Virus record (IMG/VR): IMGVR_UViG_3300042289_001232
DNA from: an uncultured virus (IMG/VR IMGVR_UViG_3300042289_001232)
Taxonomy: Duplodnaviria > Heunggongvirae > Uroviricota > Caudoviricetes
DNA length: 64,000 nucleotides
Strand: one strand, 5' to 3'
The position numbers and the translations under genes were made by a program. The notes below the pieces were generated by a model that was given only the letters and a program-made list of their open reading frames with translations, ran no database searches and was not told where the DNA came from. Positions 512-45,513 of the stretch are shown here, piece after piece (position 1 is the first letter of the stretch; every line of letters starts with the position of its first letter).

Positions 512-2377
512 TTAAGTGATACCAACTTGAGTTGTGTTGATCTTGACATCCGTTCCCCTCGCAAAGTTCACCCTCACATCAAATGAGTCAACTCTGATTC
601 CATCAGATGCGTTTCCGCTTGCATCTGCACTCATACCAATTTGGAATCCTTGATATGTATCATCAAAGTGATATATGGTTGATAGCCAGGCATCATTCTT
701 CAAATATCCATCACTAATACGGATGACCGAAGACTCATCCGATTCAAAAGAAGGAAGAATAGTTCCCTTATTTGCATCAAGTTTGGCTATGTCACATTGA
801 TTTAATTTCAAGATAACATTTGAGTTACGACCTGGACCAGTTGAACCTTGTACTTGAAGAGATGTTTTTTCCTGACTTCCAATACCAGGATAAGACACAT
901 CATCTATTCTTATTTGCCCATAAGAAGAAGTAATTCCGTCTTTTGATCCAAGTTCAATATTAACTCCATTACTTACTTTATTTCCTAGAATATCTAAACC
1001 ATCTACCAATGAGGGAATCACTAGCCCACTACCGGTTAGCGAAGATTCTTCTTTTCTAGTCAAATAGTATTTTGATCCAACCACAAGAATACTCGGTGAA
1101 GATGCCTCAATTCTATAAACAGTTTCATCATCGTCGTAATTATCAATAGAACTCAGATCATCTCTTGTTCGAATAATTCCCGGTCTTAGGCTTACACCAT
1201 CAGTTATTTTTACAGATCTTCCTATTTTAAATCCTGGACTACCACCAGTGATACCTGCCTTACTCTGATATGTAAAATCGCCCCACGGGCTAGTGCTATT
1301 TACATATAGAGTTTTTAATGCCGCTGGAATAACAGGTCCAACAGAGGGAATAAATTCATCGATATTGAACTTCAAACCGGTGTGATTAAGCAAGGTTACA
1401 TTGCCTGCGGTGGTTCCTAATAAATGTAACTCTCCTATGTTTGAGTATTTTGTATTGGCAAAGTGCTTATTTGCTGTATTTACTGGGTATGTAGATTCTA
1501 TTAGATTAATCATACTCCCACCAGTAGCAGAAATATTTCTAAAAATATATTTCCCTATAATTGTACTATTCAAGTAAAGATTTTGTACATTAGTCACTAA
1601 TGGAATACGCCTTAAAGAATCAGAGGTAAATCCAGTAGGTATACTTGTGTTCTCGATTTCATATGGACTATCACCAACATCAAAACCAATTTGATTTATT
1701 CTGAACATACCTCGTTCATTCTTAATGTACATTCCATATCCTGCTGGTCCCGATGTATACCCAACATCCGACAATCCAGAAGAATAACCTGTCGCTCCAC
1801 CGATTAGTACACTATCAAGAATTCCTTGAGAAGCCGTTAAACCAAGTTGCTCTCTACCATAAAGACCAATATTTACAAAGTTGTCGGTGGAAAATGCTCC
1901 AATAACACCGGTGATTCCTGCTCCAGTTCCTCCCAACCATCTATTATTCTGTGGATTCAAAGCACCAAACAAACATGCAGTTCCCCTACTATTTCCTCTT
2001 CTGTCGTATATTTGCGTCGGTAGATAATTGTTTGGGTTTGTATAACCATCCGATTTGAATGGAACACCAAAATATACAAGGTCGCTTGAACCATATGAGG
2101 TTCGATTACCCTGTGGAAGCCATCCAGTAATTCCTGGCTGACCTGGGAAACTCACACTTCCACTTTGACCTCCAGTCAGTGCGGGATAAAGAAAATTATT
2201 TGGACCCCCAACTCTCCAATTCTGCCAGAATCCCCAATAATAAGGACCAAATGCATAGTCGCCTTTTTCGGATGTCATACCGTTAATGACACTAGTCCAA
2301 ATTCCACTTCCTGATGAATACCCTGAATTAAATCCAGTATTCCCCGTCCATCCACCTACCCAATAAAAATGTGGCAT
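512..2377 (-). CDS. Paralog-cassette protein 4 (621 aa), putative virion surface/beta-helical adhesin-like protein
   Basis: Shares the N-terminal YWVGGWTGNTGxNSG...GDYAFGPYYWGFxQNWR with three neighbours. G/S/T-rich. GGAG SD upstream. Confidence 0.6.
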   Translation of the reverse strand: MPHFYWVGGWTGNTGFNSGYSSGSGIWTSVINGMTSEKGDYAFGPYYWGFWQNWRVGGPNNFLYPALTGGQSGSVSFPGQPGITGWLPQGNRTSYGSSDLVYFGVPFKSDGYTNPNNYLPTQIYDRRGNSRGTACLFGALNPQNNRWLGGTGAGITGVIGAFSTDNFVNIGLYGREQLGLTASQGILDSVLIGGATGYSSGLSDVGYTSGPAGYGMYIKNERGMFRINQIGFDVGDSPYEIENTSIPTGFTSDSLRRIPLVTNVQNLYLNSTIIGKYIFRNISATGGSMINLIESTYPVNTANKHFANTKYSNIGELHLLGTTAGNVTLLNHTGLKFNIDEFIPSVGPVIPAALKTLYVNSTSPWGDFTYQSKAGITGGSPGFKIGRSVKITDGVSLRPGIIRTRDDLSSIDNYDDDETVYRIEASSPSILVVGSKYYLTRKEESSLTGSGLVIPSLVDGLDILGNKVSNGVNIELGSKDGITSSYGQIRIDDVSYPGIGSQEKTSLQVQGSTGPGRNSNVILKLNQCDIAKLDANKGTILPSFESDESSVIRISDGYLKNDAWLSTIYHFDDTYQGFQIGMSADASGNASDGIRVDSFDVRVNFARGTDVKINTTQVGIT

Positions 2378-2405
2378 ATTTTTTTTCTCCGTTTTCTTTC
2401 TAAGT

Positions 2406-5138
2406 TTAAGTTAATCCGGGATTGAACACACCTGGAGATGTTCTAATATTCATACCAGGTGAGAACAAAATACTGTAATCATCAGTTTCACCTAATCTTG
2501 AATTTGAACCTTGAATCTGTATTCCAGTATCACCAGGTGAGTATCCGATCAAAGTATTATTCCAAGATGGATTATTTGGTGAATTGGTCAAAATTTTACC
2601 ATTACGGATGACACCATTTCTGAAAATGGGATAGATTCCAATCGGAAGTGATGAATTTGATGGTCTTACTGTGCCTGATCTAATGTTTATACTCTCAATT
2701 GTCGCACCATCAACTTCAAGATCCACAGTTCCTGTATCCGCTCCAGTTCCCCCTAGATCAACAATTACATATGGATAAGTTCTCTGTGCTATTCCAAGAG
2801 AACTTCCAATTGAAATTGATGGATTATCAGATTGTGGGTTAACAATACCGGCAGCGGTAGGATCATAAGGATCTTGTCTCATAATCTCGACTGTACCCTG
2901 AACAGCACAAGGTATTTTTATCACTTTCAATTGTTTTGGTGTAAACCGAATGGAAACATTACCAGGAATTCCACTTTCGTTCTCGTTTGTATTTTCGTTT
3001 AATATAAGACCATTAAAATAGTTACTAGTAATAATTGATCCTGCGTCCACAAACTTTGTTTCGGTATTTTCATGTGAAAGTGCTTCGAACATTCCTCCAC
3101 CGACATAAAGATGCGAAATATAGCCTGCATATTTCGTTGTTCCAATATCCACACCTGTTAGACCGGAGTATCCAGAGTATCGATTTGTACCTACGTTGGT
3201 TCCAGTTGTTAGACCCACATTTCTGAAAGCAACTTTTGCAACATGAGCACACTTCACATCGATATATCCACCATTTCCCATAATGTCAATTGGATCAAGT
3301 CCAGTATCCACATTAGCGGAAAGACCACCACCACTTCCGGTTACTGCTATTGGAATAATAGGGGCATTTCTTGTTATCATAAACAATGCTTTTTGAACTG
3401 GTAAACTAGATGAAGCGCATCCCGTAGGTGCAAAAGTTAATCCAGTTGGGAATTTCAAAACTTTACTTGTATCAGATTCATTTATGAACAATGACAGAGC
3501 GGCTGAACCATACCAATTTGAGGAAACAGAAGTTTTAGCATTGAATGAGGTCAAGCCAGCAGTTATATCATCAAGTTTTGCTTGTCTATGCGAGATAGAA
3601 TTACCGTAAATATTATCTGTTGGTTGTGTATAAGAGGCGATGCATGCTTCCCAAGGAGCAAGAACAAAAGAATTAGAGAGTGATGCTAGAGGAACTGCTG
3701 CGACATTCCAATTATCAGGTAAAAGTAACCCCATACCAACTTTACCGCCGTTGCATCCACCTCCTGAAACTATAACTTTTAAATCATCACTGTTCGCAGT
3801 TAATCCACCAATAGAGTTCAAAGGCAAATTTACAACTGCTTTTCTAATGCTAGTAAAACTTCCACTGTTAATCTGTGGCTCTACAGTCAGAGTACCAGTA
3901 GGACCATTAAAACCAACGAACAGACCACCGGCGGGATCTTCAGAACAAACTACACCAATCAGTGTATTATTTGCTATGTTCGAAACTGCTGCGGCTGTAG
4001 CATTTGTCGGAGCAATATTCGAATATAACGGAGATGGATCAAAGTTAAATGTTTTGTTGATTCCACAACCGCCATTACCATGAGTCTGATGACAAATCGA
4101 ATTCATAAGTGCTAATGGAATTGTGCAATATGAATTAGAAGTAATTCCGATATGAGTTTGAATTCCCTCAAGTGCTCCTTGCATCACTTGTTTGGTAGAT
4201 AAACTACCTTGCCCTTGCCCAAAAACATAAAATGGACCGTTTTCACTATTGTCAAATCCAACTGATCCGACATGGAGGGATGCTCTATATCTTCTAGGAA
4301 CACCAAACTCTTCATCATTAGTTGAATTAGAGGTTGCGGTTAAAGATCCATCGTTTCCGGTTCCTGATGCTAATATATGCATTAAAGCAGGATCCCAATA
4401 AACTCCTGCCCCAATTCTTGGTGCTCTATCTCTTCCCGCAATGTAATATGAATTACTGTTGCCTGTCACACCAACAATTTGTATAGGAGTACTTGATCTA
4501 AAGTATTCCAAAGCCGCTTGATATGTTGGTTCACTGAGGTCCACTGGGACATAAGGATTTTCAATGTAACAATATGCAGCATTTAGTGCCACCGTTGGCA
4601 TTGTGTTAGGTTGACCAGTAACTGAAATTTGTGTAACATTGAAGTTTTGATTTGTAACTGGAAGCGCAGGGGGGAAAGGAATTTGATATCTAAATGCAGG
4701 AACTTTACCAAATTTGGGTTGAAAACTAATGTTGATTGCATTGTTTCTAAACGATGCTGTTGTTCCAGCAGTTGAACCCAACCAACCATTATCATTAGTC
4801 AAACCACCGAACAGTAAAGATACAGGAATTTTGTGTGTGTGTCCTGGACCAGTGACTGATCCTTCAGCAGGGCCAATGAATATCGTGTCTCCTCCTCTTG
4901 GAAGGCGTGTAGCAAATTGGACGTTTGCTACACCAGCGGAGTTGGTTACTTCTCTCCAGTTCTGTACGAATCCCCAATAATAAGGACTAAATGCATAGTC
5001 CCCCTTATCGGTAGCATAACCAGTATAAACACTAGTCCAAAGACTTTGTGCTGATGCTCCAATCAGACCGTTGGTTGAAAATCCCGAGTTAAATCCTGTA
5101 TTTCCGGTCCAACCGCCGTACCAGTGAAATGTTGCCAT
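2406..5138 (-). CDS. Paralog-cassette protein 3 (910 aa), putative virion surface/adhesin-like protein
   Basis: Same N-terminal motif plus LPRGGD and LFGGL. C-terminal PIGIYPIFR...WNNTLxGxSPxDxG shared with 6897..8375. AGGAG SD. Confidence 0.6.
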   Translation of the reverse strand: MATFHWYGGWTGNTGFNSGFSTNGLIGASAQSLWTSVYTGYATDKGDYAFSPYYWGFVQNWREVTNSAGVANVQFATRLPRGGDTIFIGPAEGSVTGPGHTHKIPVSLLFGGLTNDNGWLGSTAGTTASFRNNAINISFQPKFGKVPAFRYQIPFPPALPVTNQNFNVTQISVTGQPNTMPTVALNAAYCYIENPYVPVDLSEPTYQAALEYFRSSTPIQIVGVTGNSNSYYIAGRDRAPRIGAGVYWDPALMHILASGTGNDGSLTATSNSTNDEEFGVPRRYRASLHVGSVGFDNSENGPFYVFGQGQGSLSTKQVMQGALEGIQTHIGITSNSYCTIPLALMNSICHQTHGNGGCGINKTFNFDPSPLYSNIAPTNATAAAVSNIANNTLIGVVCSEDPAGGLFVGFNGPTGTLTVEPQINSGSFTSIRKAVVNLPLNSIGGLTANSDDLKVIVSGGGCNGGKVGMGLLLPDNWNVAAVPLASLSNSFVLAPWEACIASYTQPTDNIYGNSISHRQAKLDDITAGLTSFNAKTSVSSNWYGSAALSLFINESDTSKVLKFPTGLTFAPTGCASSSLPVQKALFMITRNAPIIPIAVTGSGGGLSANVDTGLDPIDIMGNGGYIDVKCAHVAKVAFRNVGLTTGTNVGTNRYSGYSGLTGVDIGTTKYAGYISHLYVGGGMFEALSHENTETKFVDAGSIITSNYFNGLILNENTNENESGIPGNVSIRFTPKQLKVIKIPCAVQGTVEIMRQDPYDPTAAGIVNPQSDNPSISIGSSLGIAQRTYPYVIVDLGGTGADTGTVDLEVDGATIESINIRSGTVRPSNSSLPIGIYPIFRNGVIRNGKILTNSPNNPSWNNTLIGYSPGDTGIQIQGSNSRLGETDDYSILFSPGMNIRTSPGVFNPGLT

Positions 5139-5188
5139 TTTTCTCTCCTGTGATTATAGGTATGTATGTTTTCACATTATTCATCATT

Positions 5189-6874
5189 TTAAGTTATTCC
5201 GGGTGTAGTAGTCACTACACGGAAATTCTTATATTTTGGAAAATATACGTTTACATTTTTAGAATCAACTCTCAAGCCATCATCATTTGTAGATGGTCCA
5301 ATTTCAAAGTTTTGCCATCCTGTATTATTTGGATTTCTCATTTCAAGAATTGAATAGTCTTTTAAGTACCCATCGTGAATTATAATGGACGAATCAAATT
5401 CTATTTCAGGACTTGGGGCAATACATCCACCTTCTTGTCTGTGATTCTCAATATCGACGTTGTGGCACATCAAATTAAATTTGAGTCCACTATTTATAGA
5501 ATTTATGGGAATCATTTTTAACAAAGAAATTTTCTGCGTATCGAAAGGACCGTTTCGATTTCCAATTTCATAGTTAGATGTCAGTCCATATTGTGCTATC
5601 AATCCCCCTGTAAGGGTAATTGGAACAGAAGCCCCATTCAAATTATAGTAATCTGATCCAGTGACTGCTGCTGAGTAGAAAGTCACATCAGTCAATGGTG
5701 CACCACTAAATCCTTTACTACAAATAATCACTTTATTTTTAATCGTATATGGATTAATATTAACTATTCCTCTGATGGTAGATGTCTCATCAAACTCAAT
5801 TTCACCAACTGACTGATAACATGCTTGAGTTGTTTTTGAAATTAGTGAACCAATTGATGTGACATTTCCGGCTATTGAAAGTGACTTTAAACTTTCTCCT
5901 GCTGGAAAGAATACAGTTCCGAAAGTTCCACCTATAGCAAATTTGTTATTTCTTACAGTACTTGGATCAAGATCAAATCCAACTCCGAATCTAGTTGCAC
6001 TTGATGCATCTGTATTAACATTTATCGTTGGAGCCGTAGTTATATCTCCCGATGTTGCATTTAGTATGATTACTTTTACGAAATCGGAATTACACACAAA
6101 AGATGAGATAGATCCAGTAGAGCCGTATGGGTTTGCGCCTAATATCAAACTAAGAGGGCATCTTCCCCGATTATCTGATGTAAATCCAATCGGAAGATTA
6201 ATTTGTGCAGAAATTCCTTCACCAGAATCAAATCCTATTTGGTTTCTTCTGAAAGGATGACCAATTTCGGATTCTGTATTGGAAGGATAGAAATATAATC
6301 CCGTGGTATAAATTCCAAATCCTGCCGGTCCATCACGATAAGATCCTGTCACATTCGCCCAAGGCAATCCATATGATGGAAATACGTTAAACACAGTCAG
6401 ACTCTTTGCTCCTGATGCTCCCGTAACAGCATTTCCTAAACCAGACAACCAAACATTTCCAATAGGTCCAACTGCGCTCGTACTTCCAGTTAACGCACCA
6501 AATAAACAAGCAACACCTGTTCGCTTCATCGCAATATCGTATGGATATGCTGCCATTGGAGGTATTTGTGCGAATCTAACCTCATCTCCACCCCTAGGAC
6601 ATTGAATTGGGTCAAATTCCTGACCGCCCATCGGACCACCAGTCAAAGATACAACATAGCCTCTAAAAACTCCTTGACTGACCGCCACTCTCCAGTTTTG
6701 TGGAAATCCCCAATAATAAGGACCAAACGCATAGTCGCCCGACAATGATGTTTGACCATTGATTACACTAGTCCATATTGGATTAAGTCCACTAGTGCCA
6801 CCTCCAGTAGGGGAGTATCCGGAATTGAATCCTGTATTTCCTGTCCAACCACCAACCCAATAATAGATTGCCAT
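5189..6874 (-). CDS. Paralog-cassette protein 2 (561 aa), putative virion surface/adhesin-like protein
   Basis: Same N-terminal motif. CLFGAL, GPAGxG, NQIGFD, GFTSD and C-terminal DGYLK...DGxRVDS shared with 512..2377. Confidence 0.6.
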   Translation of the reverse strand: MAIYYWVGGWTGNTGFNSGYSPTGGGTSGLNPIWTSVINGQTSLSGDYAFGPYYWGFPQNWRVAVSQGVFRGYVVSLTGGPMGGQEFDPIQCPRGGDEVRFAQIPPMAAYPYDIAMKRTGVACLFGALTGSTSAVGPIGNVWLSGLGNAVTGASGAKSLTVFNVFPSYGLPWANVTGSYRDGPAGFGIYTTGLYFYPSNTESEIGHPFRRNQIGFDSGEGISAQINLPIGFTSDNRGRCPLSLILGANPYGSTGSISSFVCNSDFVKVIILNATSGDITTAPTINVNTDASSATRFGVGFDLDPSTVRNNKFAIGGTFGTVFFPAGESLKSLSIAGNVTSIGSLISKTTQACYQSVGEIEFDETSTIRGIVNINPYTIKNKVIICSKGFSGAPLTDVTFYSAAVTGSDYYNLNGASVPITLTGGLIAQYGLTSNYEIGNRNGPFDTQKISLLKMIPINSINSGLKFNLMCHNVDIENHRQEGGCIAPSPEIEFDSSIIIHDGYLKDYSILEMRNPNNTGWQNFEIGPSTNDDGLRVDSKNVNVYFPKYKNFRVVTTTPGIT

Positions 6875-6896
6875 ACATTTCTCCGTGTCTTGTTTT

Positions 6897-8375
6897 TTAA
6901 GTCTGCGTTAATCCGTCTGTAGTCTTGAAGTTTGTTCCTGGAGAAAATATGACTTTTCTTCCACCTTCAACAATAGTAAGACCTTTATCTGATGGTGAAA
7001 ATCCGACTAATGTGTTGTTCCAATCAGAACTATCCAAAGTAGGGTGGTTAAAATCAAGTATCGCAGAACGAGATATATTTCCCTCCCTGAATATTGGATA
7101 AATTCCAATTGGTTGAACTAACTCCGAAGGTTTGAATATTCCCGACTGAAGATTTGCGTTGGAAGCGATGAATGAGAACTCATTAACTACAATATCGCCT
7201 AATGTTCCTGCCGAAACACCTTCGTCATATGTATTCAAGTTCTCAATAGTAACACCACCATACCCATGTTTACTCCCTAGTTCGACATTCATCGTTCCTA
7301 TAGTTGGCCTATACAATGATAATTGTCCAGGAACACCTGCGTATATGCCAATAACACCATTAACCTTATATGGAATAATTGTCACATTTCCTGGTGAAGA
7401 CATTGTGGAAATTCCAAAATAATCCTCATTCAATAACACATTACCAATCGCACCACCATGCGAACCAACCGATAAACTATTACAATTAAAGTTAAATCCA
7501 GCATGATCGTATGATGAGAAATTTCCTCCGTTTATTACAACACCTCCAAAAAATCCAGATAGTTTTGTTGATACAGGAGGTGCGGCATCAGGAAATTGTG
7601 GTCTGTTAGATTCAAACCCAGTATTGAATGCATCATCACTCGGTCCCGTAAACATAATAGGAGTTTGACTAAAGGATGCAGGATTGCCCTTTAAACTTAA
7701 AATTCCAATTTTTGCATAAGGCGAGAAAACCTGAAAATTTCCTAAAAGCACTTTCAGTAATTCTATCCCATTTGTGTCAGCAGATAATCCAAGAACATTT
7801 CCCGCAAATACTGCTGTCCCACCCTCACCACAGTCAAATCCAATTTGATTTACACGGAATTTTCCTTTATATTCACCAAATCCAGCAGGTCCATTTGTTA
7901 CTTGTAAAGAATTATCTGTTGATGGATGACCCCATAAATGACTAACACTAAAACTAATCAATCCCTGTGCAAGAGAGGTAGTAAGTCCAGTTGACCCCAA
8001 CCAAGAAGTTCCTCCACTTAAACCACCAAACAACATTGCAGTTTCAGTTAAATCCGATGAAGTAATTTCTCTAGAGCCAAACAAAACAGTATCTCCACCT
8101 CTTGGGAGATTTGATGCGGGTGTTAATTTATACTGATTTGAATTTGGAATATTTGATCTCAGTCTCCAGTTCTGAATAAATCCCCAATAATAAGGACCAA
8201 ATGCGAAATCACCACCTGTTGCTTGTGCGCCGTTGAATGGACTCGTCCATAATGGCCCGTATGTGTACAAATCTCCAGTTGGTCCTGCGACCACAGAGAC
8301 ACTTCCGGTTGCGGCAAATCCAGAGTTAATTCCTGTATTTCCCGTCCAACCACCCACCCAATAATAGACTGCCAT
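6897..8375 (-). CDS. Paralog-cassette protein 1 (492 aa), putative virion surface/adhesin-like protein
   Basis: Same N-terminal motif. First gene after the late promoter motif at 8412-8418. AGGAG SD. Confidence 0.6.
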   Translation of the reverse strand: MAVYYWVGGWTGNTGINSGFAATGSVSVVAGPTGDLYTYGPLWTSPFNGAQATGGDFAFGPYYWGFIQNWRLRSNIPNSNQYKLTPASNLPRGGDTVLFGSREITSSDLTETAMLFGGLSGGTSWLGSTGLTTSLAQGLISFSVSHLWGHPSTDNSLQVTNGPAGFGEYKGKFRVNQIGFDCGEGGTAVFAGNVLGLSADTNGIELLKVLLGNFQVFSPYAKIGILSLKGNPASFSQTPIMFTGPSDDAFNTGFESNRPQFPDAAPPVSTKLSGFFGGVVINGGNFSSYDHAGFNFNCNSLSVGSHGGAIGNVLLNEDYFGISTMSSPGNVTIIPYKVNGVIGIYAGVPGQLSLYRPTIGTMNVELGSKHGYGGVTIENLNTYDEGVSAGTLGDIVVNEFSFIASNANLQSGIFKPSELVQPIGIYPIFREGNISRSAILDFNHPTLDSSDWNNTLVGFSPSDKGLTIVEGGRKVIFSPGTNFKTTDGLTQT

Positions 8376-9873: not shown

Positions 9874-9976
9874 AAAACAAAGTGTGATTAAACCAAAAAG
9901 ACCGATTAAATCTGCAAAAGCAAGCGATGGAAGAACTAGAGGATCTCCAAAGAAACCGAAAAAACCTAGCCCTTAA
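9866..9976 (+). CDS. Small basic protein (36 aa; MPRKQSVIKPKRPIKSAKASDGRTRGSPKKPKKPSP), not in the ORF track
   Basis: ATG overlaps the end of the upstream ORF. It fills the gap exactly to the stop of the convergent gp3 gene. 13 K/R residues against 1 acidic. Confidence 0.5.
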   Translation: MPRKQSVIKPKRPIKSAKASDGRTRGSPKKPKKPSP

Positions 9977-10518
9977 AGATTAATCATAGTCGATGTATCG
10001 TATACAAAAGAAACTGTTGCTGTGAGAACCGCTGGCTCTGCCTCTGAATTACTCAAAGTGAATCCTGATAAATTAGTTGGCACTAAGTTTCTATAATTGA
10101 TCATGTAGATTGGGTTTTTCTTATTATTCAGTAGTAATAACTGAGCATCTGATGGTTCAGCCAATTTGTCTGGAAGTTTTTCTCTGAAGTCTCTGTATGG
10201 CACACCTGATCTAAACCACCTAACCATCTCAATGTAGTTTTTAAAGTTTTCATCTATTATGAATCTTATGGACACATCTGTGCTGACTTTGCCGCCGGGT
10301 ATTTTCAGTGGTGTTGCAGTTATGTAGTCTAATACCAATGGATTAGAATTAGATGCCGGTGTCGTTACGGATGTACAGAAGTAAGTGACTCCAGGAATTT
10401 TATGAAGAATAAACCTGAAATTTGTGTTTAAAGCAGGATTAGTATTTACATCCTCCGATTCAATTTTACTGAATCCCTCATACGATGGAATGAAATTTTC
10501 AGAATTTGGTGATGTCAT
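9973..10518 (-). CDS. gp3: Tail completion/sheath stabiliser gp3-like, copy 2
   Basis: NFRFILHKIPGVTYFCTSVTTP...FIIDENFKNY...NKKNP...ATVSFVY pattern. Lies downstream of gp23, as in T4-like cyanophage-type genomes. Confidence 0.75.
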   Translation of the reverse strand: MTSPNSENFIPSYEGFSKIESEDVNTNPALNTNFRFILHKIPGVTYFCTSVTTPASNSNPLVLDYITATPLKIPGGKVSTDVSIRFIIDENFKNYIEMVRWFRSGVPYRDFREKLPDKLAEPSDAQLLLLNNKKNPIYMINYRNLVPTNLSGFTLSNSEAEPAVLTATVSFVYDTSTMINL

Positions 10519-11075
10519 CAGATATCATCCAAATCATAACTGCTGAATTGAAATGTTGCAGTTGCAGTTGCAATGCTTGCATCTGTAAGTGCACTATTAT
10601 AGTCAATACTTGTTAAATTAGTTATAAACATACCGTTAAACCTAAATCTTGCAACTGGATTTTTTTTATTCGATAATATTAAAAGATGGCCGATATTTGT
10701 CATAGCAGAAAACCCCAAATCAGTTCCCGTTTTGAAGAAATCTTCATATACGAGTGTGTTTTTAAACCAGTCATTCATTTGATTGTAATTCGAATAGTCC
10801 TCATTTATTATGAATTTTACAGTCAAGTCTCCATGAGTTACTTTATCACCAAAAAACTTTAATGATGGTGCAAATGGAACTTGAAGTCGAACTGGCTCAC
10901 ATGTCATTTCAGGAAACCCCACCTCTGTGCAAAAGTATGTTCCTAGTCTAATTTTCGGTATAGAGAGATGAAAATTTGATGCGAATGCGTAATTCGTATT
11001 AGAAGGCTGTCTGTTTAATATTCCAGACTCTCGATCTGTAGGAACTGTGTTCTTGGGATTTATCGTAGACATCAT
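10518..11075 (-). CDS. gp3: Tail completion/sheath stabiliser gp3-like, copy 1
   Basis: NFHLSIPKIRLGTYFCTEVGFP...GDLTVKFIINEDYSNY...ATATFQFSSY. Confidence 0.8.
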   Translation of the reverse strand: MMSTINPKNTVPTDRESGILNRQPSNTNYAFASNFHLSIPKIRLGTYFCTEVGFPEMTCEPVRLQVPFAPSLKFFGDKVTHGDLTVKFIINEDYSNYNQMNDWFKNTLVYEDFFKTGTDLGFSAMTNIGHLLILSNKKNPVARFRFNGMFITNLTSIDYNSALTDASIATATATFQFSSYDLDDI

Positions 11076-14391: not shown

Positions 14392-14829
14392 TTATAATCC
14401 GAGGTAGCCAGGAGGTGTTACTGATCCTGATGCATGAACAAATTCCAGTAAAACAGTTCCACTTAATGTGCCTGTTGGAGTTATATTCAAAATTCCTGTC
14501 GGTGCAGTTGCGTTATTCTTTAAAGTGGTTCTCTCTAGATTCATTTCACCGTTTGTTCCATATAGTCTCATGGCAGTAGCACCGGGCGCACCAGCCCATG
14601 TGAGATTCAATCCGCCTGTACTTCCGCCTGTACTTAGTGTCCATGTGATTCTTGACAACGCTGCGGTATTGTTTGTAATTCCTGCAACAAATCTTTCGCC
14701 GGTAATACCCCCAATACCATCAAAAGCCGAACCCGTAACACCAAGTTCGTACATAGCAGATTCTGATGAGAAATCTACTTTGGTCACATACCTCTTTTGC
14801 GTCTTGACTAAATCTTGTTTAATTGCCAT
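14392..14829 (-). CDS. Hypothetical head-region protein (G/T-rich, beta-rich; possible capsid accessory)
   Basis: ORF between the prohead core genes and gp21. Several GxT motifs. Confidence 0.6.
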   Translation of the reverse strand: MAIKQDLVKTQKRYVTKVDFSSESAMYELGVTGSAFDGIGGITGERFVAGITNNTAALSRITWTLSTGGSTGGLNLTWAGAPGATAMRLYGTNGEMNLERTTLKNNATAPTGILNITPTGTLSGTVLLEFVHASGSVTPPGYLGL

Positions 14830-28596: not shown

Positions 28597-28600
28597 AAAT

Positions 28601-35793: not shown

Positions 35794-35990
35794 TATTGTC
35801 TTTTCCTAAGTTCATCGATTACTGATCGGAGTTCAGATACTTCAAGTTCTAGCCTATTTAGTCGGTTTTTTTCTATTTCTTTTCGCCTCTTTTTTTCCTC
35901 ATATTCTTTTATAGCAATTATGTCAGTTGACAATATTGCTCCCGTTTTAGTATCACGAACGAGTTTGCTGTTCTTTACAGGAATTTTCAT
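35793..35990 (-). CDS. Small conserved-type hypothetical protein (65 aa)
   Basis: LVRDTKTGAILSTD plus a coiled-coil tail. Coupled to both neighbours by overlapping start/stop codons. Confidence 0.7.
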   Translation of the reverse strand: MKIPVKNSKLVRDTKTGAILSTDIIAIKEYEEKKRRKEIEKNRLNRLELEVSELRSVIDELRKRQ

Positions 35991-38900
35991 GTGGCAACCA
36001 TTCTGAGGTTCTTGATTCTTGGAAGTACTCTCTGATCATTTGAGTACATAACAATTTTTAATGAGAAGGCTCTGAATTGTGATAATCCAAGACCGACACT
36101 TGTATATGTAACCTCACGGAAATCATTTTCATTCTGTGAATATGCAGAATCTGTAGTTGTAAGTTGAGTATATCCAATATTTCCAAATACGCCCTCACCT
36201 ACAGGTAGAGGCCGGACAAAAACCTGAATTCTAGAGTCATAAGGATTGCAGAGAGAAAGTTGAACATGCAAATTGTTTGCTTCAAATCCACTCTCAAGTA
36301 CTACTTGTTTCGTGATATATCTCGATTCACTTGGAGCAGTCGCACCATAATTTGTTGAAAGCAATTCATTATTCTGTGAGAGTGTGTAGTTGTTGTTTAT
36401 TTTGTTACCAACAATAAGATAGTGTGAAGTTTCAGCGTCAAACAATGGAGACACATAGGCATTTCCTATCATATCAACTTTAATTTCTGAGAATTTTCCC
36501 ACACCTTTAGACCTTGTAGAAATATTTAAAGGTCTATCGATATTCTTGTTTGGCTGTGTGGAGATAAACGAACTACTAAGATCTGATAGCAAACCCTTCT
36601 CACTAAAAGAGATTGATGTGTTTGATGGATTTATGTAATTCATCTGTAGTCGCATCAAATCAAAGTTCGTTGCTGTCCCATAGTTTTCAGTTTTGTTCTG
36701 TAATTTAATATATCCAGAATTAGGAGAGAACTTGCAAAGATAAACAGAGAACTTTATGCAATCTGTATCTTTTTTCGTTATACTTCCTGTATTTTGTGGC
36801 TGAAACAAACTGTTTATTGAAGGTTGCTTGGTTGCCTTTCTAATCGGATCGAATTCCTCAACACGGATAATATCTTCCCCAATTGTAGATCCAAATACAG
36901 CATATTGACTACTATTTGTACTCAAAGAAATTGCATATTCATTTCCTGGTAGCAAGTAAATTGGACTTGAGAAAGAAAACTGCGTTTCATTTGAACCATC
37001 AGAACTAGTTGTTATGTCAGAGGGATACAAAGTTTTCGTCCCAAAGGGGATGACCTTTGAAGGATGGGGGTATCCGTTTTGTGTTGGTTTCAACATTAGA
37101 GTGATCGGAGTGTTGTTATCGTCTGAGTGTTTACTCAAGAAAGAAACACCAATATTTTTTACAAATACTCCATCTGGATACTTAACTGGATCTACGAAGA
37201 ATGTTTGACTTAATGGTTCAGTATAACCAAAGAAATCAGTTGACAATAATTCAGTTAAACTAGATTGTATTTTGTTGGTCTTTACAGATCTTCTACGAAC
37301 TATTGCGGGGCGAGTTGATAGTAAATTATCATCAGATAGTGTATCAATAGTTCCGGATACATTAAAGATTGCATCTGCTCCCATAGTTGCATCTGTTACC
37401 GAGTTCGATTGACTGTCTGTGATTCTAAACAAACGACGGCCTGTAAGGAAATTTTGTCTTGGATCTTGATCCATGATATATCTAAGATTATTCACTTCAC
37501 CATTTGGCGATGTCAATTGTGAATCGCCCGTGCAATATGCAGTAATGTCTATGTCATCCACAAACACATAGAACTTGGTATTTGGTTTGAGACCTTTCGC
37601 ATTAAGACGAATTTCATTATCTCTTGTGTAAGGAACAATATCTTTACGGATCACACGGGTGTTGGTTCTCCTACGAATACCCTCAGGGACACTGGATTTA
37701 AATGTATTTCCAAGATTAAAACCTCTAATACCAGCGACCAATGAATTTTTCGTATCTATTAGATTTTGTTTTGTTGTCACTTCATTTGAAGTTTCACGAC
37801 CATACCAAATAGATTCCCAGAAATTCCATTGACTATTAAATCCTATACCCTCTTGCCAAGAGTCGTTTTCACCACCAACATTAACCTTAACTGATGGGGT
37901 TAGACCTGTACTGAACCAGAAATCATTTGACGGCGAAAGTTCAAGAGTTCCGAGATAGTTGAAAACACTCGATGGATTCACAACGAATGAACGAGTTGCA
38001 AGAGGTTGAACTATCTCAGCCGATGTTGTATAATCAAGTGTAATTATACCGTTTGGTGAAACAACAACTCCAGAAGACTCAATTGGTCCCGTAACACCAA
38101 AAACTCTTGACTCAAATGTTGGTCGCAGTTCGTTATTTTCAAAATCAATCGATGCAGCGTACATGGGATCAACCACATCACTGATGTTATGACCTTTAAA
38201 TTGATCGACCAAAATTCCTTTCTTAGGAATCTCGATATCGTTTTCATCTACAATTGATATCGCCTTTGCTTCTTGCTCAAGAAGTGAGAGTGTAGTATAA
38301 TACTCTACTGCTTCCATTCTCTTCTCAATCTCTCCTATATCTCTCATAGTGTAGCGTTTGTTTTCAATAAAACGAACTGATAAATCCTTATTGTTAATTG
38401 TAAATGGATTGACAGTCACAGAGTAGAGAGTCATAGCATTAGGATTATCTGAAGGATATTGCCCATCGATTGTTGGAGTTCCTTTGATGACTCGGAACTT
38501 TCTATCTCTATCTAATACTATTTTGTCTGTCCTTGAAAGATAGTGCTTATATGTAAACAATTGATCATTTGCTGCTGTATTAACCGGAAACCAAGGAAAA
38601 CCAACAACTCCAGCCGTAACGCCAGTAGTTCCACGATCAGGACGGAAATCAATTGTATCTCGCAAATCGTACAATTCTCCTGTGGTTTTGCTCACATAAC
38701 TTGGTATATCACTATAGTTCAAAGAAGAATATGAATCGACAGTAAATGGTCCTCGATTTGAAGATCTCTCAAATCTCTTAATTGTGGCTGAGTATGGTCC
38801 TGTTATACCTGATACCCCTTTACGAAGAATCATTCTAGACCAATCATAAATATTGTCTCTCTGTCCATCATCGAATGTAAAAAATTGCTTAATTTGTTGA

Positions 38901-40942
38901 TTTGCAGATCCATCTTTGGTTCCGGTTAGAGAAATTACATCAAAAACATCTACTCTACCAGCAAGATAAAGGACGTTATTTCCATAGATGTCACTTGTAA
39001 TTCCCGAATACTGCGTTGTAAAACCTCCAAGAGTCGGTCCAATATTTTCTGTAATAACAGTCTTTGATCTTCGAAGATTAGTTATCTCCTGAATATCAAT
39101 ACTAGTCACAACACTAATTGGCGTTGAAGCAGTTGTTCCAAAAAGAGTTAAGTCTATTTGTGAAGTTCCGATTCTCGCAGCAGTCCCACCTAATGGTCTA
39201 CCATGAATATCAAATGCGGTTATATCATTGTTTGGAAGTGTAATTATTTGTGTTGGGATTGAGAATGCTACATCGGTTGTCGTGGTTGTGTAATCGGATA
39301 CATTTATAGTTCCTCTGGAAGAACCGTTGGCAGTATTCACACTAAAATTTTGTCCAGGTACGGAACTAGGCACTACATTGAAAAATCCAGCAATAGCATA
39401 GTTAGCATCATCAACACTTTTACCTCTAGTGCCTGTTGGGAATTTGTAAAGTAGGTTCCCATCCTTAATATTAATGAGACCATTAGAACCTTCTACGACA
39501 AAAGCAGAAGTTGGACCGGTGGCTGACGCATGTATACGAGTTACCTCTGTAAATGCTGCTGTAGATCCCATCTCAACATTATAAAGATATAGGTTATAAA
39601 CCCCTGAACCTACATCATAAGGCTCTACCCACCGAACCCTTGCTGTACCTACTGCATTTTGCGCTTGTCCGCTCGTCCCCTTCCCCAAATAAACTAAATT
39701 CTGTTGCTTAAAATCAAATATATTTGCAAATCCAGAACCAGTTGCACCAGAGAACTTGACCCTAACATATGGGCCTACTGATCTATTAAAGTACTTATCA
39801 GTAACAGTTCTAACATGATCTGTATCACGGGCTGCATCTATAGGAATCCTCGTTAATCCTTGAGTTTCAAACTCATATCCAAAAATATATGCTTTTCCTG
39901 GCTCAAGATCTGCGAATAGATTTCCTGTTGGTCCGCCGTTTGATATGCCGGGTCCGTCTTGAATACTAAGTTCAAATGGTCTTACTGTGTAGTTACCTGA
40001 CTCATCATATGTACGACGAGCCATATTGTCTTCTAGTGATGCGTAGTCTGGATATTTCTCTATCTTGACAGGAACACCATTCACTATTCTCAAGAACTCT
40101 ATAAAGTCTTTTCTTGAAAAATTGTCCGTGCTACTTGTATCACTTGCAGTAAATCCGTTTTGAGTAATCAACAGATCTATCTTAAATCTGTCTGCACCTG
40201 GAGCATTGTAATTATAAGATCCAAAAGCAGGATCATTTAGAGTTAAATCGTCTTCTGATTGAACAAATGTCTTGTTAACTGAAAAACCTATTCTTGAAGT
40301 GGGATTATCATATATTCTAATTTGATTCCCCGCTGGACCTGATAATGAGTACGCTCCAACCGATTGAAAATCGTTTAAAACAAAGTATCCCTCTGTAAAT
40401 CTGACCCCACGATCAACTGAAACCACTAAAGCATTTCCTGTTGGGGGTATAGTGAATGACGTTCCCGTTACACTTGCAGAAATACGAACTCCACTATTTC
40501 CTGTTCCGGAAAGAAAATCTCCCTTTGCAAAAGAGGTTCCCCCTTCGATATACTCAAAGAATACTACAGGAAATGCATCAACTGATGATCCCGTATATCC
40601 TCCTTCAGCATGAACAATTTTTGCCTTTGCTCTTGGGGTATTTGATGACGATATCGTTGAACCTATGAAGTCTTGTATGTTATTTGTTCCGGATAAGCCA
40701 GATACCCGTGCAAATCTTAGGCTATTGACTGTAATCTTACCATCAAGAACCATACTCCCTTCTTCAAAGACATGACTCCCAAATCTTTCAATTTGATTCT
40801 GTAGTATAGTCTGAATTTGCGTTAGTTCTCTAGCCTGAACTCCAAAACCAGGCCGGAACATGATTCTGAGAAACTTTTTGTCCTCATTAAAGTCATCATA
40901 GTAGGGGTCGTTGTTAAAAAGTTCTGTAGTATATGATGGCAT
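35987..40942 (-). CDS. Large baseplate/tail structural protein, VrlC/DUF4815-like
   Basis: PYYDDFNEDK...FRPGFGVQARELTQIQTILQNQIERFG, ARRTYDESGNYTV, NKRYTMRDIG..EKR...VEYYTTLSLLE, PLSQTFFV, C-terminal PRIKNLRMVAT. Confidence 0.85.
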   Translation of the reverse strand: MPSYTTELFNNDPYYDDFNEDKKFLRIMFRPGFGVQARELTQIQTILQNQIERFGSHVFEEGSMVLDGKITVNSLRFARVSGLSGTNNIQDFIGSTISSSNTPRAKAKIVHAEGGYTGSSVDAFPVVFFEYIEGGTSFAKGDFLSGTGNSGVRISASVTGTSFTIPPTGNALVVSVDRGVRFTEGYFVLNDFQSVGAYSLSGPAGNQIRIYDNPTSRIGFSVNKTFVQSEDDLTLNDPAFGSYNYNAPGADRFKIDLLITQNGFTASDTSSTDNFSRKDFIEFLRIVNGVPVKIEKYPDYASLEDNMARRTYDESGNYTVRPFELSIQDGPGISNGGPTGNLFADLEPGKAYIFGYEFETQGLTRIPIDAARDTDHVRTVTDKYFNRSVGPYVRVKFSGATGSGFANIFDFKQQNLVYLGKGTSGQAQNAVGTARVRWVEPYDVGSGVYNLYLYNVEMGSTAAFTEVTRIHASATGPTSAFVVEGSNGLINIKDGNLLYKFPTGTRGKSVDDANYAIAGFFNVVPSSVPGQNFSVNTANGSSRGTINVSDYTTTTTDVAFSIPTQIITLPNNDITAFDIHGRPLGGTAARIGTSQIDLTLFGTTASTPISVVTSIDIQEITNLRRSKTVITENIGPTLGGFTTQYSGITSDIYGNNVLYLAGRVDVFDVISLTGTKDGSANQQIKQFFTFDDGQRDNIYDWSRMILRKGVSGITGPYSATIKRFERSSNRGPFTVDSYSSLNYSDIPSYVSKTTGELYDLRDTIDFRPDRGTTGVTAGVVGFPWFPVNTAANDQLFTYKHYLSRTDKIVLDRDRKFRVIKGTPTIDGQYPSDNPNAMTLYSVTVNPFTINNKDLSVRFIENKRYTMRDIGEIEKRMEAVEYYTTLSLLEQEAKAISIVDENDIEIPKKGILVDQFKGHNISDVVDPMYAASIDFENNELRPTFESRVFGVTGPIESSGVVVSPNGIITLDYTTSAEIVQPLATRSFVVNPSSVFNYLGTLELSPSNDFWFSTGLTPSVKVNVGGENDSWQEGIGFNSQWNFWESIWYGRETSNEVTTKQNLIDTKNSLVAGIRGFNLGNTFKSSVPEGIRRRTNTRVIRKDIVPYTRDNEIRLNAKGLKPNTKFYVFVDDIDITAYCTGDSQLTSPNGEVNNLRYIMDQDPRQNFLTGRRLFRITDSQSNSVTDATMGADAIFNVSGTIDTLSDDNLLSTRPAIVRRRSVKTNKIQSSLTELLSTDFFGYTEPLSQTFFVDPVKYPDGVFVKNIGVSFLSKHSDDNNTPITLMLKPTQNGYPHPSKVIPFGTKTLYPSDITTSSDGSNETQFSFSSPIYLLPGNEYAISLSTNSSQYAVFGSTIGEDIIRVEEFDPIRKATKQPSINSLFQPQNTGSITKKDTDCIKFSVYLCKFSPNSGYIKLQNKTENYGTATNFDLMRLQMNYINPSNTSISFSEKGLLSDLSSSFISTQPNKNIDRPLNISTRSKGVGKFSEIKVDMIGNAYVSPLFDAETSHYLIVGNKINNNYTLSQNNELLSTNYGATAPSESRYITKQVVLESGFEANNLHVQLSLCNPYDSRIQVFVRPLPVGEGVFGNIGYTQLTTTDSAYSQNENDFREVTYTSVGLGLSQFRAFSLKIVMYSNDQRVLPRIKNLRMVAT

Positions 40943-43303: not shown

Positions 43304-43320
43304 ACTGGTTTATACTGCTA

Positions 43321-45513
43321 TTAAGATCCGGGTGGGGCTGAGTAAGCACAAACTATACGATCTCCTATGCCCTGAATTACTTTTCCGCTACCATTAACAA
43401 TATCTACACTTATATTAAAATTGCCATTTCCCACATTTGAAAATTGAGTTGTTGTTGAATTTAGGTTGACTAACTGAACAACACCACCATCAGGATTGTT
43501 AGCGGCCAATACACCTGACAATCTAACTCTAATTTTAGACAACCCATCAACACCAAACCTAATAAGGTTTTCATAATTTGCTATCGTCCAGTTAACTGTC
43601 AATTTTTTGCCGCCCGAAATAGTTCCAACGACTGAAGATGAATTTAGAGGAGAAGTTATGTTTATAACTGGCGTAGCGTATGCAGTTGCTGATTCTGTTC
43701 TACAATCGAATTCATCCCCAATTGGAACATTGAAAAAAGATCTCGCTGTTATTTTGAAGAACTGTGTATTTCCTGAATACCTAAGAAATGCAAGTTTAGA
43801 ATCTACTGGATTAGTCTCATCATAAAAATCCGCAGTCCAACCCTGCGGAGGGCTACCTCCAGTTGAGGATATCCATTCATTCCAGTATTGAAATTGAAGC
43901 CAATTTCGATAACCAACAGGTGAACTTATATGTGGAGCACTTACTGTGAGTTGAGACTTTTCTATTCTGGCTAAAACTGCATCCCTTATTCTTCTATTTG
44001 GATGTTCATATATTATCCAAAACGGATCTGCACCAGAAAATCCTGTAAGACCGACCGGAGGATTGGCTTCGGTCGCTGAAACAAATAACTGTGTGTTCGA
44101 TATTGGGTTTCCGGCTGTTGAATATGCTAAATTATAATATATGCTATTTACATCTGTTACATTACTATAATCTAGTGTTGTTCTAATTTTAGCGTCATGT
44201 ATTGATCTTGAATACCCCGCCTTAACATTAGTACCAATTTCATCGCCAGCGGTTCCAGGAACTTGAAACCAATCATACAAATTATCATGTGTATTAAAGG
44301 TGTAAGGTAAGTAGTGTCCGATCAAGGGGACTTCATATCTAATCAAAGTTGTTGCGTTTTTGAGGTCACCACGGGAACATCTTTTAATTAGGACTTGCCC
44401 AAACATTGCGGTTCCTGCCGGATGAATTAAGCGACGAATAGTTTCTTTATATTGATCAAGGACTATTTCTGCTTTAAGAACATACGAGTACTCTTGATAG
44501 TAATGGTTGTCCTGTAGAACCTTATTTGTACTTATTCTACCGTCAAAATTTAGATAATATCCATCCGCACTACACACAGTTGAAATATTTGCTGTCCCCG
44601 AAAATCCTGATCCCCCTAAAGAAAAAACCTTTACCGACGGGGTACTTTCGTAGTTTATTCCAAAGTTATCTATTTTAATTTTACGAATACTGCCTGAACT
44701 TGTAACCGATGAAACTGATCCTTTTGCACCTTGACCGCTATCACCTGGAGCAGATGTAATTAAAACTTCGTCACCAACTGAATAACCTGATCCCCCATTA
44801 TTAACTGTAATCGATCCGAGAACATTGTAGACTTTTTGCTCTCTGTAAATGTTTTCACCCGATCTAAATTCTAGTCCTATAATTCCAGATAGAAATGTTC
44901 CATTCTTACCAGATATCGTTAGTTCTGCAATTTCATACTGTCCCTGTTGATAGACACTCACATCTAAAACCTTGGCCGATGCAATTATTTTTCCATTCGA
45001 ATCTCTCTGATAAACAAGATTTCCAATTGAGTTAAATATATCATTACCGATTGTATTTGATATCAGTAAAGAGGTTTTTTGAAACCATTTACCATCAGAT
45101 GTACGAAGAATGTCCCTTTTAGGATAGTAAAATTCTACTCCGACATCAAATAAAATTCTGAACAAGAACTCGTATGATTTCTCTGTTCCTTTTGCACGAT
45201 AAAAAGACTTAATGTTCTTTATTAATTTTTTAACATCAAGAGGTGTTCCTGTTGATGTTGTAGCCAATTGCTCAGGGAAATCGTGCAAATACTCCTTCTT
45301 AAAATGTGTTATAAAATCGCCAATACTTTGATCAATATCAGTGACATCTTGGAGTACCATTGGGCTGACTATCTGCCCTCCTCTCTCTGTCCTTTGCAAC
45401 CACTCATAGTAAGCAGACAAAAAGGCAACTAATGTCGGATGATCTACCCTAACAAATTCAGGCAATCTACCCGATACTAGACTCGAAAGTTGATTTGGTT
45501 TGCTGTAATCCAT
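43321..45513 (-). CDS. gp7: Baseplate wedge initiator-like protein
   Basis: LPEFVRVDHP..VAFLSAYYEW, IKSFYRAKGTEKSYEFLFRILF, LQDNHYYQEYSYVLK, HPAG..MFG. Lies between gp6 and gp8. Confidence 0.8.
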   Translation of the reverse strand: MDYSKPNQLSSLVSGRLPEFVRVDHPTLVAFLSAYYEWLQRTERGGQIVSPMVLQDVTDIDQSIGDFITHFKKEYLHDFPEQLATTSTGTPLDVKKLIKNIKSFYRAKGTEKSYEFLFRILFDVGVEFYYPKRDILRTSDGKWFQKTSLLISNTIGNDIFNSIGNLVYQRDSNGKIIASAKVLDVSVYQQGQYEIAELTISGKNGTFLSGIIGLEFRSGENIYREQKVYNVLGSITVNNGGSGYSVGDEVLITSAPGDSGQGAKGSVSSVTSSGSIRKIKIDNFGINYESTPSVKVFSLGGSGFSGTANISTVCSADGYYLNFDGRISTNKVLQDNHYYQEYSYVLKAEIVLDQYKETIRRLIHPAGTAMFGQVLIKRCSRGDLKNATTLIRYEVPLIGHYLPYTFNTHDNLYDWFQVPGTAGDEIGTNVKAGYSRSIHDAKIRTTLDYSNVTDVNSIYYNLAYSTAGNPISNTQLFVSATEANPPVGLTGFSGADPFWIIYEHPNRRIRDAVLARIEKSQLTVSAPHISSPVGYRNWLQFQYWNEWISSTGGSPPQGWTADFYDETNPVDSKLAFLRYSGNTQFFKITARSFFNVPIGDEFDCRTESATAYATPVINITSPLNSSSVVGTISGGKKLTVNWTIANYENLIRFGVDGLSKIRVRLSGVLAANNPDGGVVQLVNLNSTTTQFSNVGNGNFNISVDIVNGSGKVIQGIGDRIVCAYSAPPGS

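Follow-up and report, generated by a model that had tools for sequence, protein, structure and literature searches.

In a 64,000-nucleotide stretch of DNA (IMG/VR record IMGVR_UViG_3300042289_001232; hereafter, the window), filled by the structural module of an uncultured T4-like myovirus, the four-residue motif G-x-T-[G/A] recurs in otherwise unrelated structural proteins: 91 sites are found, against about 21 in shuffled sequences. Judged from the sequences, the motif may well be the acceptor site, or sequon, for O-glycosylation by the phage's own glycosyltransferase (GT), encoded at 26987-28189, which combines a catalytic domain of the GT-A type with tetratricopeptide repeats (TPR). It also seems somewhat probable that the clade to which this phage belongs has spread single copies of a site, found elsewhere in collagen-like arrays, over the outer faces of the particle, under selection for the density of the sites rather than for their position. 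A wider reading is more tentative: that a widespread clade of uncultured T4-like phages sugar-coats its particles at a four-residue threonine sequon, a single phage enzyme acting on most outward-facing proteins and the sites being gained and lost by lineage at a held density, like the glycan shields of enveloped animal viruses. In this wider form, one would be dealing with a general threonine O-glycosylation system: the enzyme family, with its GT-A and TPR domains, accompanies (G-x-T)n collagen-like proteins across many bacterial phyla, and SgtA-BclA3 would be the sole case studied.

Enrichment of the motif

The scored set consists of the 52 open reading frames (ORFs) of the window; 89 of the 91 sites fall within positions 512-45513. 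Shuffling of whole proteins yields 20.9 +/- 4.5 sites, with a maximum of 38 over 2000 shuffles, in agreement with the claim, made in an earlier sequence-only reading of the window, that the motif pervades its structural proteins. When the shuffles, again 2000, are confined to blocks of 15 residues, 23.4 +/- 4.7 sites are expected, with a maximum of 42: these values are far below 91, and local richness in glycine and threonine is therefore not the cause of the excess. The two forms of the motif are the top-ranked among all 8000 patterns of the type a.bc (G.TG, 51 sites against 13.3; G.TA, 40 against 7.7), the third pattern having a z score of 5.9; N-x-T sequons are not among the top spaced pairs in this ranking. 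Rearranged controls remain near an observed to expected ratio (O/E) of 1: 1.07 for [GA]T.G, 0.57 for T.G[GA], 1.15 for GT.[GA] and 1.30 for G..T[GA]. The ratio is 1.13 for G.T[^GA], where the residue following the threonine is neither glycine nor alanine.

The codons used within the motif are mixed, as had been noted in arguing that no DNA repeat is involved, with ACT over-used (47 of 91). At the DNA level, the excess is confined to the sense strand read in phase 0 (91 against 20.8); in the two other phases, and on the antisense strand, counts agree with codon shuffles, and selection thus acts on the peptide. Some sites are copies of one another: the four large paralogs located at one end of the window share an N-terminus holding GWTGNTG, and the long tail fibre contains, at residues ~1040-1240, three copies of a unit at 83-aa spacing, each with two H-G-L-T-A sites, which give six GLTA sites. 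Removal of the copies leaves 81 independent contexts. Collagen-like runs, defined as five or more uninterrupted GXY triplets, are absent from the 52 ORFs; seven of the 73 gaps between neighbouring sites measure exactly 3 residues, which corresponds to the collagen register.

Glycine and threonine are abundant in these proteins, and ten of the 91 sites are copies from the paralog N-termini or the tandem repeat; both facts could suggest that the excess is an artefact, arising from composition, from repeats or paralogy, or from a word at the DNA level. As far as sequence statistics can decide, this explanation is rejected, its probability being negligible: local and global shuffles never reach half of the observed count, permuted motifs score about 1, neither the other phases nor the antisense strand shows an excess, no collagen-like runs are present and the independent contexts are numerous.

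The requirement for each residue was evaluated by position scans in the clade of phages carrying the enzyme. At position 3, threonine scores 3.5-4.3 and serine 1.4-1.9; at position 4, glycine and alanine score 3.5-5.2 and serine 1.9-2.4; at position 1, glycine scores 3.5-4.3 and serine, in relatives, up to 2.4. Pooled GT-negative genomes score 1.0-1.4 at each scanned position. The excess is confirmed as real, peptide-level, directional and threonine-specific.

Distribution over the particle

The features of the window which contain the sites, along with the candidate enzyme, are listed below by position, strand and number of sites.

512-8375, minus strand: four paralogous large proteins (621, 910, 561 and 492 aa) with 10, 10, 3 and 5 sites; no Pfam or PHROG family
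11166-12533, minus strand: major capsid protein (gp23-like), 3 sites; phrog_138
14392-14829, minus strand: 145-aa G/T-rich protein in the head gene block, 4 sites against 0.73 expected; no family found
18670-20430, minus strand: tail sheath (gp18-like), 3 sites; phrog_23
22161-22628, minus strand: small terminase (TerS), one conserved GSTA near the C-terminus; a non-virion exception
22625-23437, minus strand: gp15-like tail terminator/sheath stabiliser, 2 sites (5 GxT) in the C-terminal tail; Pfam T4-gp15_tss at residues 4-219
23441-24331, minus strand: gp14-like neck protein, 1 site; phrog_460
26987-28189, minus strand: GT2 (GT-A) plus TPR glycosyltransferase, the candidate modifying enzyme; Pfam, AlphaFold2 model, Foldseek
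28255-29629, minus strand: 113-aa fibre-assembly-like protein (1 site) and 342-aa protein (2 sites), adjoining the GT; phrog_1084, phrog_3304
29629-35793, minus strand: long tail fibre, 2054 aa, 24 sites against 4.7 expected; Peptidase_S74 chaperone domain and Collar domain
35987-40942, minus strand: VrlC-like (DUF4815) structural protein, 1651 aa, 12 sites against 1.54 expected; phrog_358, PF16075
40955-45513, minus strand: gp8-like (777 aa, 6 sites) and gp7-like (730 aa, 2 sites) baseplate wedge proteins; phrog_438, phrog_17744

The individual occurrences pointed out in the sequence-only reading are all found: about ten motifs had been claimed for the 621-aa paralog, and ten are counted; the five GxT of the 145-aa protein are present, four of them being GxT[GA]; all five GxT are located in the last ~47 residues of gp15; GSTGLTA occupies residues 132-138 of the gp23 homologue; and the four paralogs end in VGIT, PGLT, PGIT and DGLTQT. 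Equally, no G-x-T-[G/A] is contained in the large terminase (TerL), portal, protease, scaffold, gp32 or RNase H-like exonuclease, as had been stated.

When proteins are grouped by their place in the virion, the sites concentrate in fibre, baseplate-periphery and large unassigned proteins (74 observed, 14.3 expected) and in the shell proteins of capsid, sheath and neck (9 against 1.89). Small unassigned proteins contain 7 against 2.03, enzymes and other non-virion proteins 1 against 0.45. Tube, portal, scaffold, protease, hub and other internal or buried virion proteins, 4865 aa in all, contain none against 2.29, which is an absence of enrichment and no significant depletion.

Within the shell proteins of sheath, capsid and neck, homology and sequence variability assign the sites to outer, variable regions, and they appear, accordingly, to be surface-exposed rather than buried. 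The gp15 sites, at residues 225 and 241, lie past the end of the Pfam domain at 219. In the sheath, sites 172 and 191 are contained in residues 99-273, an insertion which cannot be aligned with T4-like gp18 and which presumably corresponds to the outer domains of that protein. In the capsid protein, the GSTG and GLTA at 132-138 fall within a stretch, 116-173, which is not alignable with T4 gp23, and these two sites are confined to the GT-positive clade; a further site, GPTG at 99-102, is common to three GT-positive and two GT-negative aligned sequences. The predicted structure of the sheath is of moderate quality (predicted local distance difference test, pLDDT, 71); it puts one of the three sites in a loop and one in an isolated bridge, each ahead of a strand, and the third (site 297) in a helix; no single local structure is shared.

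The claim that only exposed proteins carry the motif holds for the excess in fibre, periphery and shell proteins and for its absence from internal ones; it fails for TerS and for the 113-aa assembly-like protein. The TerS GSTA is conserved: 37 clade orthologues hold 34 such sites, and 8 relatives, taken from loci selected by their capsid gene, hold 5; located in a non-virion protein, this conserved site inflates pooled counts. The 145-aa protein, whose gene is placed between those for portal and protease, would be a further exception if internal; at this position T4 presumably encodes prohead core proteins. Two paralogs of the 145-aa protein in a related contig, G007, hold 2 and 4 sites. Several N-x-T triplets (NNT, NLT, NAT, NIT) are also found in the 145-aa protein.

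Turnover of the sites and comparison among phages

Orthologues tend to conserve the number of sites, not their place. Sixteen distinct sheath sequences contain 2-7 sites each, spread over 29 alignment columns; 15 of these columns hold the motif in one sequence only, and no column does so in more than 75% of the sequences. In 21 VrlC-like sequences, 6-13 sites each are spread over 44 columns, only one being occupied in more than 75%. Most motif columns belong to the less conserved half of the alignment (23 of 29 for sheath, 17 of 17 for gp15, 12 of 12 for gp14, 33 of 44 for VrlC, 12 of 17 for gp8), as do 55-69% of the other threonine columns. At homologous positions, relatives often carry G-x-S-[GA]. 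Site density is kept among orthologues, and positions are not; the convergent gain proposed in the sequence-only reading finds support in this density, maintained at differing alignment columns.

Whole genomes were compared through greedy ORF sets; the second ratio refers to long G/T-rich ORFs only.

Window: 91 against 21.0, O/E 4.34; 5.17
T4: 28 against 24.0, O/E 1.17; 0.73 (seven ORFs)
DLP6: 53 against 36.2, O/E 1.46 (1.06 with collagen-like runs masked); 1.93
P-SSM4: 89 against 67.6, O/E 1.32; 1.34
phiM12: 44 against 33.1, O/E 1.33; 1.10

No homologue of the GT of the window is found in T4, DLP6, P-SSM4 or phiM12. Three related contigs without a GT match score 1.25 (G002), 1.04 (G003) and 0.92 (G004). 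In these seven phages and contigs, the gp15 orthologues contain no sites at all. VrlC-like orthologues contain 3 against 2.0 in DLP6, 4 against 2.6 in P-SSM4, 2 against 1.9 in phiM12, and 4 against 1.9 and 6 against 2.6 in GT-negative related contigs, compared with 12 against 1.5 in the window; in T4 no orthologue is detected. An outlier is the P-SSM4 sheath (110722-112971), with 5 sites against 0.93, in a genome devoid of both a GT homologue and an overall excess.

A different picture emerges for the 80 IMG/VR loci in which the GT is 56-100% identical to that of the window: pooled, they contain 1878 sites against 442.3 (4.25), and 1398 against 402.4 (3.47) when collagen-like runs are masked. 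Enriched families include sheath (77 against 18.6), gp15 (100 against 10.2 in 42 orthologues), gp14 (70 against 13.6 in 57), collar-like (723 against 150), VrlC-like (244 against 43.2), gp8-like (58 against 8.6, O/E 6.7) and gp7-like proteins (O/E 7.3). Across 31 orthologues, the 113-aa assembly-like family reaches 78 against 6.4, and two of its alignment columns hold the motif in more than 75% of the sequences. TerL (7 against 7.2), tube (0 against 2.0) and portal (0 against 0.6) are not enriched, nor is the GT itself, which has no site in the window and 11 against 9.9 in 73 orthologues. Eighty loci collected by their capsid gene (51-82% identity) have an O/E of 1.78, mostly from the conserved GPTG of the capsid protein, and their sheath proteins contain 21 sites against 17.8. 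The near-complete GT-positive contigs score 195 against 66.9 (2.92; G007) and 167 against 72.5 (2.30; G008); G007 is 93% complete, and its 27 recognised enzymes contain 7 sites against 6.17. The excess persists across base composition, GC content being about 50% in G007 and G008 and 39% in the window.

The sequence-only reading had reasoned that equal enrichment in orthologues from phages lacking a GT would speak against a modification site: the seven such phages and contigs lack the excess, which is not general to T4-like phages. Capsid identity to the window is 78-85% for GT-positive phages and 62-64% for their GT-negative relatives.

These comparisons bear on an alternative, in which the motif would be a structural habit of the lineage, unrelated to the GT: a turn or strand-entry element, or a two-triplet remnant of collagen-like sequence, kept for folding or stability in fast-evolving exposed loops and fibre modules. 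Such an origin would fit a motif which is specific for threonine rather than for serine and threonine, the location of two of the three sheath sites directly before beta strands and the gaps in collagen register; threonine is, moreover, the commonest residue at the Y position of bacterial collagen-like proteins generally, at 31.6% according to PMC8968730. With the GT-positive phages forming one clade, any clade trait would co-occur with the enzyme. On the other hand, proteins of the same fold do not conserve the positions of the sites, and in the seven GT-negative phages and contigs they show no excess; the predicted contexts (loop, isolated bridge, helix) differ; and the T4 fibre proteins, represented by its seven long G/T-rich ORFs, are not enriched. 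On balance, a structural habit is considered unlikely.

The glycosyltransferase

The GT gene is located between the collar-like gene and the fibre genes. Its 400-aa product matches Pfam Glycos_transf_2 at residues 33-120 and, weakly, TPR_12; both a GT-A (GT2) catalytic domain with a metal-binding D-x-D motif and a C-terminal TPR or helical-repeat domain are present. Residues D116, D118 and E119, the first and second of which form the D-x-D, are invariant in 44 sequences. The AlphaFold2 model (pLDDT 90.9; predicted template modelling score 0.84) comprises an alpha/beta domain at 30-193 and an all-helical domain at 205-399. When compared to known structures by Foldseek, it finds SunS and ThuS as top matches, with E values of 9e-14 to 2e-12 and template modelling (TM) scores of 0.55-0.60 over 388-397 columns; taken together, the entries 7msn, 7msk and 7msp span E values of 9e-14 to 2e-11 and 293-397 columns. 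The next match, at 7e-6, is seven orders of magnitude weaker. The helical part matches the TPR domain of OGT, designed CTPR proteins and the TPR part of GmaR (7x9r, E 1.7e-5).

Sequence and profile searches of the PDB give only GmaR, SunS and ThuS, plus one designed TPR protein, as relatives; GmaR is the closest solved relative of the catalytic domain (E 5.8e-9 with a single sequence, 7.8e-13 with a profile). The protein scores below the curated SunS family (TIGR04195; 26.1 bits, cut-off 350). All three natural relatives are reported to glycosylate proteins or peptides (PMC9638930, PMC12457901, PMC8620827): GmaR acts on flagellin (PMC9638930), and glycocin transferases form O- and/or S-links (PMC12457901). 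An excess of threonine motifs on outer proteins, coupled to an enzyme of a protein-glycosylating type, makes it probable that the particle is sugar-coated.

As envisaged here, the GT would act in the infected cell on newly made virion proteins, adding a sugar to the threonine hydroxyl. Small residues at positions -2 and +1 would let the site reach the active centre, while the TPR domain would hold the protein substrate. Sites ending up on the outside of the assembled particle would be tolerated or favoured; those on buried or internal surfaces would not. The outcome would be a sugar coat whose attachment points drift between lineages at a conserved density. What the analysis shows directly is the excess with its specificity, its restriction to the clade, the turnover, the fold of the GT and the surroundings of its homologous genes; the action of the GT on the motif, the sugar it would attach and the function of a coat are inferred.

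The sequence-only reading had left the choice between a modification sequon and a shared binding tag. The fold of the GT and the neighbourhoods of its bacterial homologues, described below, favour the sequon; distant phage GT homologues without the motif, and the restriction of GT-positive phages to one clade, make this part of the claim only partially supported. In the tag version, the motif would be read by something else: a host or second phage enzyme, such as a sugar transferase or a kinase, an assembly chaperone, or a decoration or binding partner. Enrichment and turnover do point to selection on the peptide without naming its reader, the 113-aa assembly-like protein adjoining the GT is itself motif-rich with conserved sites, and relatives differ in further sugar genes. 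Yet, among the enzymes recognised in the structural module, the GT alone is both common to the clade and missing from every one of the seven GT-negative comparators; in unrelated bacteria its family is associated with G-x-T proteins; and neither a kinase nor a second transferase is seen among the PHROG and Pfam matches of the window. A reader other than the GT is regarded as quite improbable, more so than a structural habit.

Homologues of the enzyme in bacteria and other phages

Bacterial and archaeal contigs were scanned for homologues: 47 loci (L296-L342) contain full-length ones, with 33-49% identity, and 33 control loci match the catalytic domain only. Full-length homologues are common in Methylococcales, and are also found in Alphaproteobacteria, Actinomycetes, Gemmataceae, Parachlamydiaceae and others. 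A collagen-like ORF is present in 19 of the 47 full-length loci, mostly within 5 kb of the GT and with threonine at 67% of the Y positions, and in none of the 33 controls; the pooled O/E is 3.85 for the former and 0.81 for the latter. Similarly, 55 of the 80 phage GT loci feature a collagen-like ORF, against one of the 80 capsid-gene loci.

An unrelated jumbo phage of Tunturiibacter, Tunturi_5, encodes a GT homologue of 36-39% identity, about 4 kb from a fibre gene whose product contains 66 sites against 8.7; all of them are located in (GPT/GAT)n runs. In the same region (PP885688, 28905-39144), the GT homologue stands beside a nucleotidyltransferase gene and four paralogous genes of ~285 aa. 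The fibre itself, of 1469 aa, is composed of globular modules separated by (GPT/GAT)n runs.

A number of observations weigh against glycosylation of the motif by the phage enzyme. The excess in bacteria and in Tunturi_5 is wholly contained in collagen-like runs, O/E falling to 0.96 and 0.84, respectively, when these are masked; since the window has no such run, to attribute the same role to its dispersed single sites is an extrapolation from the family. A megaphage, LR745206, has a GT homologue of ~30% identity and an O/E of 1.19, and at seven loci that surround genes related to that of the Tunturi_5 enzyme the O/E values are 0.48, 0.61, 2.77 (4 against 1.4), 3.30 (6 against 1.8), 2.89 (9 against 3.1), 0.85 and 0. 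The GT-positive T4-like phages being one clade, the association of enzyme and motif amounts in effect to one evolutionary event. The contigs G002-G004 are incomplete (44-77%), so that the absence of the GT applies to the syntenic region from gp13 to VrlC, which G002 and G003 cover. To these are added the conserved site of TerS, the conserved sites of the 113-aa protein and the sheath site borne by a helix, none of which is expected if only exposed surfaces carry the motif. Finally, the C. difficile enzyme SgtA takes serine peptides, yet serine is weakly enriched in the motif of the clade.

A universal link of any phage GT homologue with the motif was also considered, and rejected: LR745206 and four of the seven loci show no excess, and the other three rest on 4-9 sites.

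Comparison with known systems

The system closest to the one proposed is SgtA-BclA3 of Clostridioides difficile, BclA3 being a collagen-like glycoprotein of the spore surface. SgtA is described as a cytoplasmic protein of 358 aa, in which four TPRs follow a GT-A domain; its gene adjoins bclA3. The enzyme uses UDP-GlcNAc to attach beta-O-GlcNAc (N-acetylglucosamine) to threonine in peptides from the GPT collagen-like region, in G-P-T-G contexts, and in vitro it also accepted serine peptides (PMC7157674). As compared through this description of its architecture, the window enzyme has the same order of domains and a similar size (400 aa), and its homologues lie, at the frequencies given above, beside (G-x-T)n collagen-like genes. 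It differs in that the window GT adjoins no collagen-like gene, a neighbour found in relatives and in Tunturi_5, and in that the sites of the window are single, dispersed over at least 16 virion proteins and turning over between lineages.

SunS and ThuS (PDB 7MSN, 7MSP, 7MSK), the best full-length structural matches, also combine a GT-A domain with a helical repeat and act on a ribosomal peptide. Their identity to the phage protein is 13-16%, and their substrate is a small bacteriocin precursor, of which one or two residues are modified; no gene for such a precursor is recognised in the window, where the excess concerns threonine and not cysteine. GmaR of Listeria monocytogenes is likewise a GT plus TPR protein, reported as a flagellin O-GlcNAc transferase which O-glycosylates a surface-filament protein in the cytoplasm (PMC9638930). 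With 637 residues, it includes linker and antirepressor domains which are absent from the 400-aa phage protein, and its C-terminal part matches the latter as TPR only.

Glycosylation of phage virions is already known: in mycobacteriophages (Che8 and relatives), phage GTs are reported to attach glycans to virion proteins and to produce a glycan shield in this way (Freeman et al. 2023, as cited in PMC11256854). PMC8402811, by its subject, deals with glycans of the host and not with glycoproteins of phages, and the abstract of PMC13419713 makes no mention of glycans. Those phages belong to another group and infect other hosts, and the likeness, as far as that account goes, is at the level of virion glycosylation, not of sequons. 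A defined four-residue sequon across many T4-like virion proteins was not found described in the literature searched, supplements lying outside the search.

It is uncommon for O-glycosylation in bacteria to follow a sequon that can be read, and the usual assumption is that phage particles carry no glycans; here the motif is short and can be counted, an enzyme can be proposed and clades differ clearly, which makes the case directly testable. If the proposal is correct, the sequences of T4-like phages abundant in the environment would allow their surface chemistry to be predicted, and this would matter for adsorption and stability and for the way in which hosts, grazers and antibodies recognise them. 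A substrate rule would also become available for a GT family whose genes, in many bacteria, stand beside collagen-like ones.

Sugar-pathway genes in relatives

The GT-positive contig G007 contains a further set of sugar genes, which amount to a deoxy/amino-sugar pathway.

L202:2835-4776, L207:15665-19624 and L208:490-1332: GDP-mannose 4,6-dehydratase, three more epimerase/dehydratases and a DegT aminotransferase

Of these, the aminotransferase was searched for in five other contigs, namely G008, G010, G001 (a 33-kb fragment) and the GT-negative G002 and G003, and found in none; its lack in the GT-positive G008 and G010 led to rejection of a sugar-nucleotide pathway as the constant partner of the GT. 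A protein bearing a cytidylyltransferase is an ATP-grasp fusion, partly present also in the GT-negative G003. Near the sugar genes, at 84-103 kb of G007 (L206:4007-19107, L207:951-3386), large motif-rich ORFs without PHROG families are clustered: one of 950 aa contains 36 sites against 4.5, another of 1491 aa 27 against 8.2.

Gene content of the window

Nearly all genes of the window are on the minus strand. Head, neck and tail are represented by the major capsid protein, scaffold, protease, portal, tube, sheath, both terminase subunits and gp13/14/15-like neck proteins. Also encoded are a collar/gp10C-like protein, the long fibre, with its S74 chaperone end, and the VrlC-like (DUF4815) protein; baseplate genes are gp8-, gp7-, gp6-, gp25-, PAAR- and gp5-like, and gp32 and nucleases are located at the far end. 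PHROG and Pfam matches place the gp23, gp20, gp18, gp19, gp17, gp13-15, gp5-8, gp25 and gp27-like genes in T4-like order. The nearest isolate by sheath protein is Stenotrophomonas phage DLP6, with 51% identity.

The four large paralogs share the N-terminus M-x-x-[FY]-[HY]-W-[VY]-G-G-W-T-G-N-T-G and a C-terminal end G-[IL]-T. For the 621-aa member, an Atlas search returned no related cluster, the Atlas model having a pLDDT of 0.27, and six homologues are found among 5.8 billion proteins. One possibility is that these proteins serve as additional fibres or bind the receptor.

In addition to the canonical tube gene at 18014-18640, three extra tube-like genes (phrog_45) are present at 9973-11075 (minus strand) and 55027-55764 (plus strand); two of the three are arranged in tandem, just downstream of the capsid gene.

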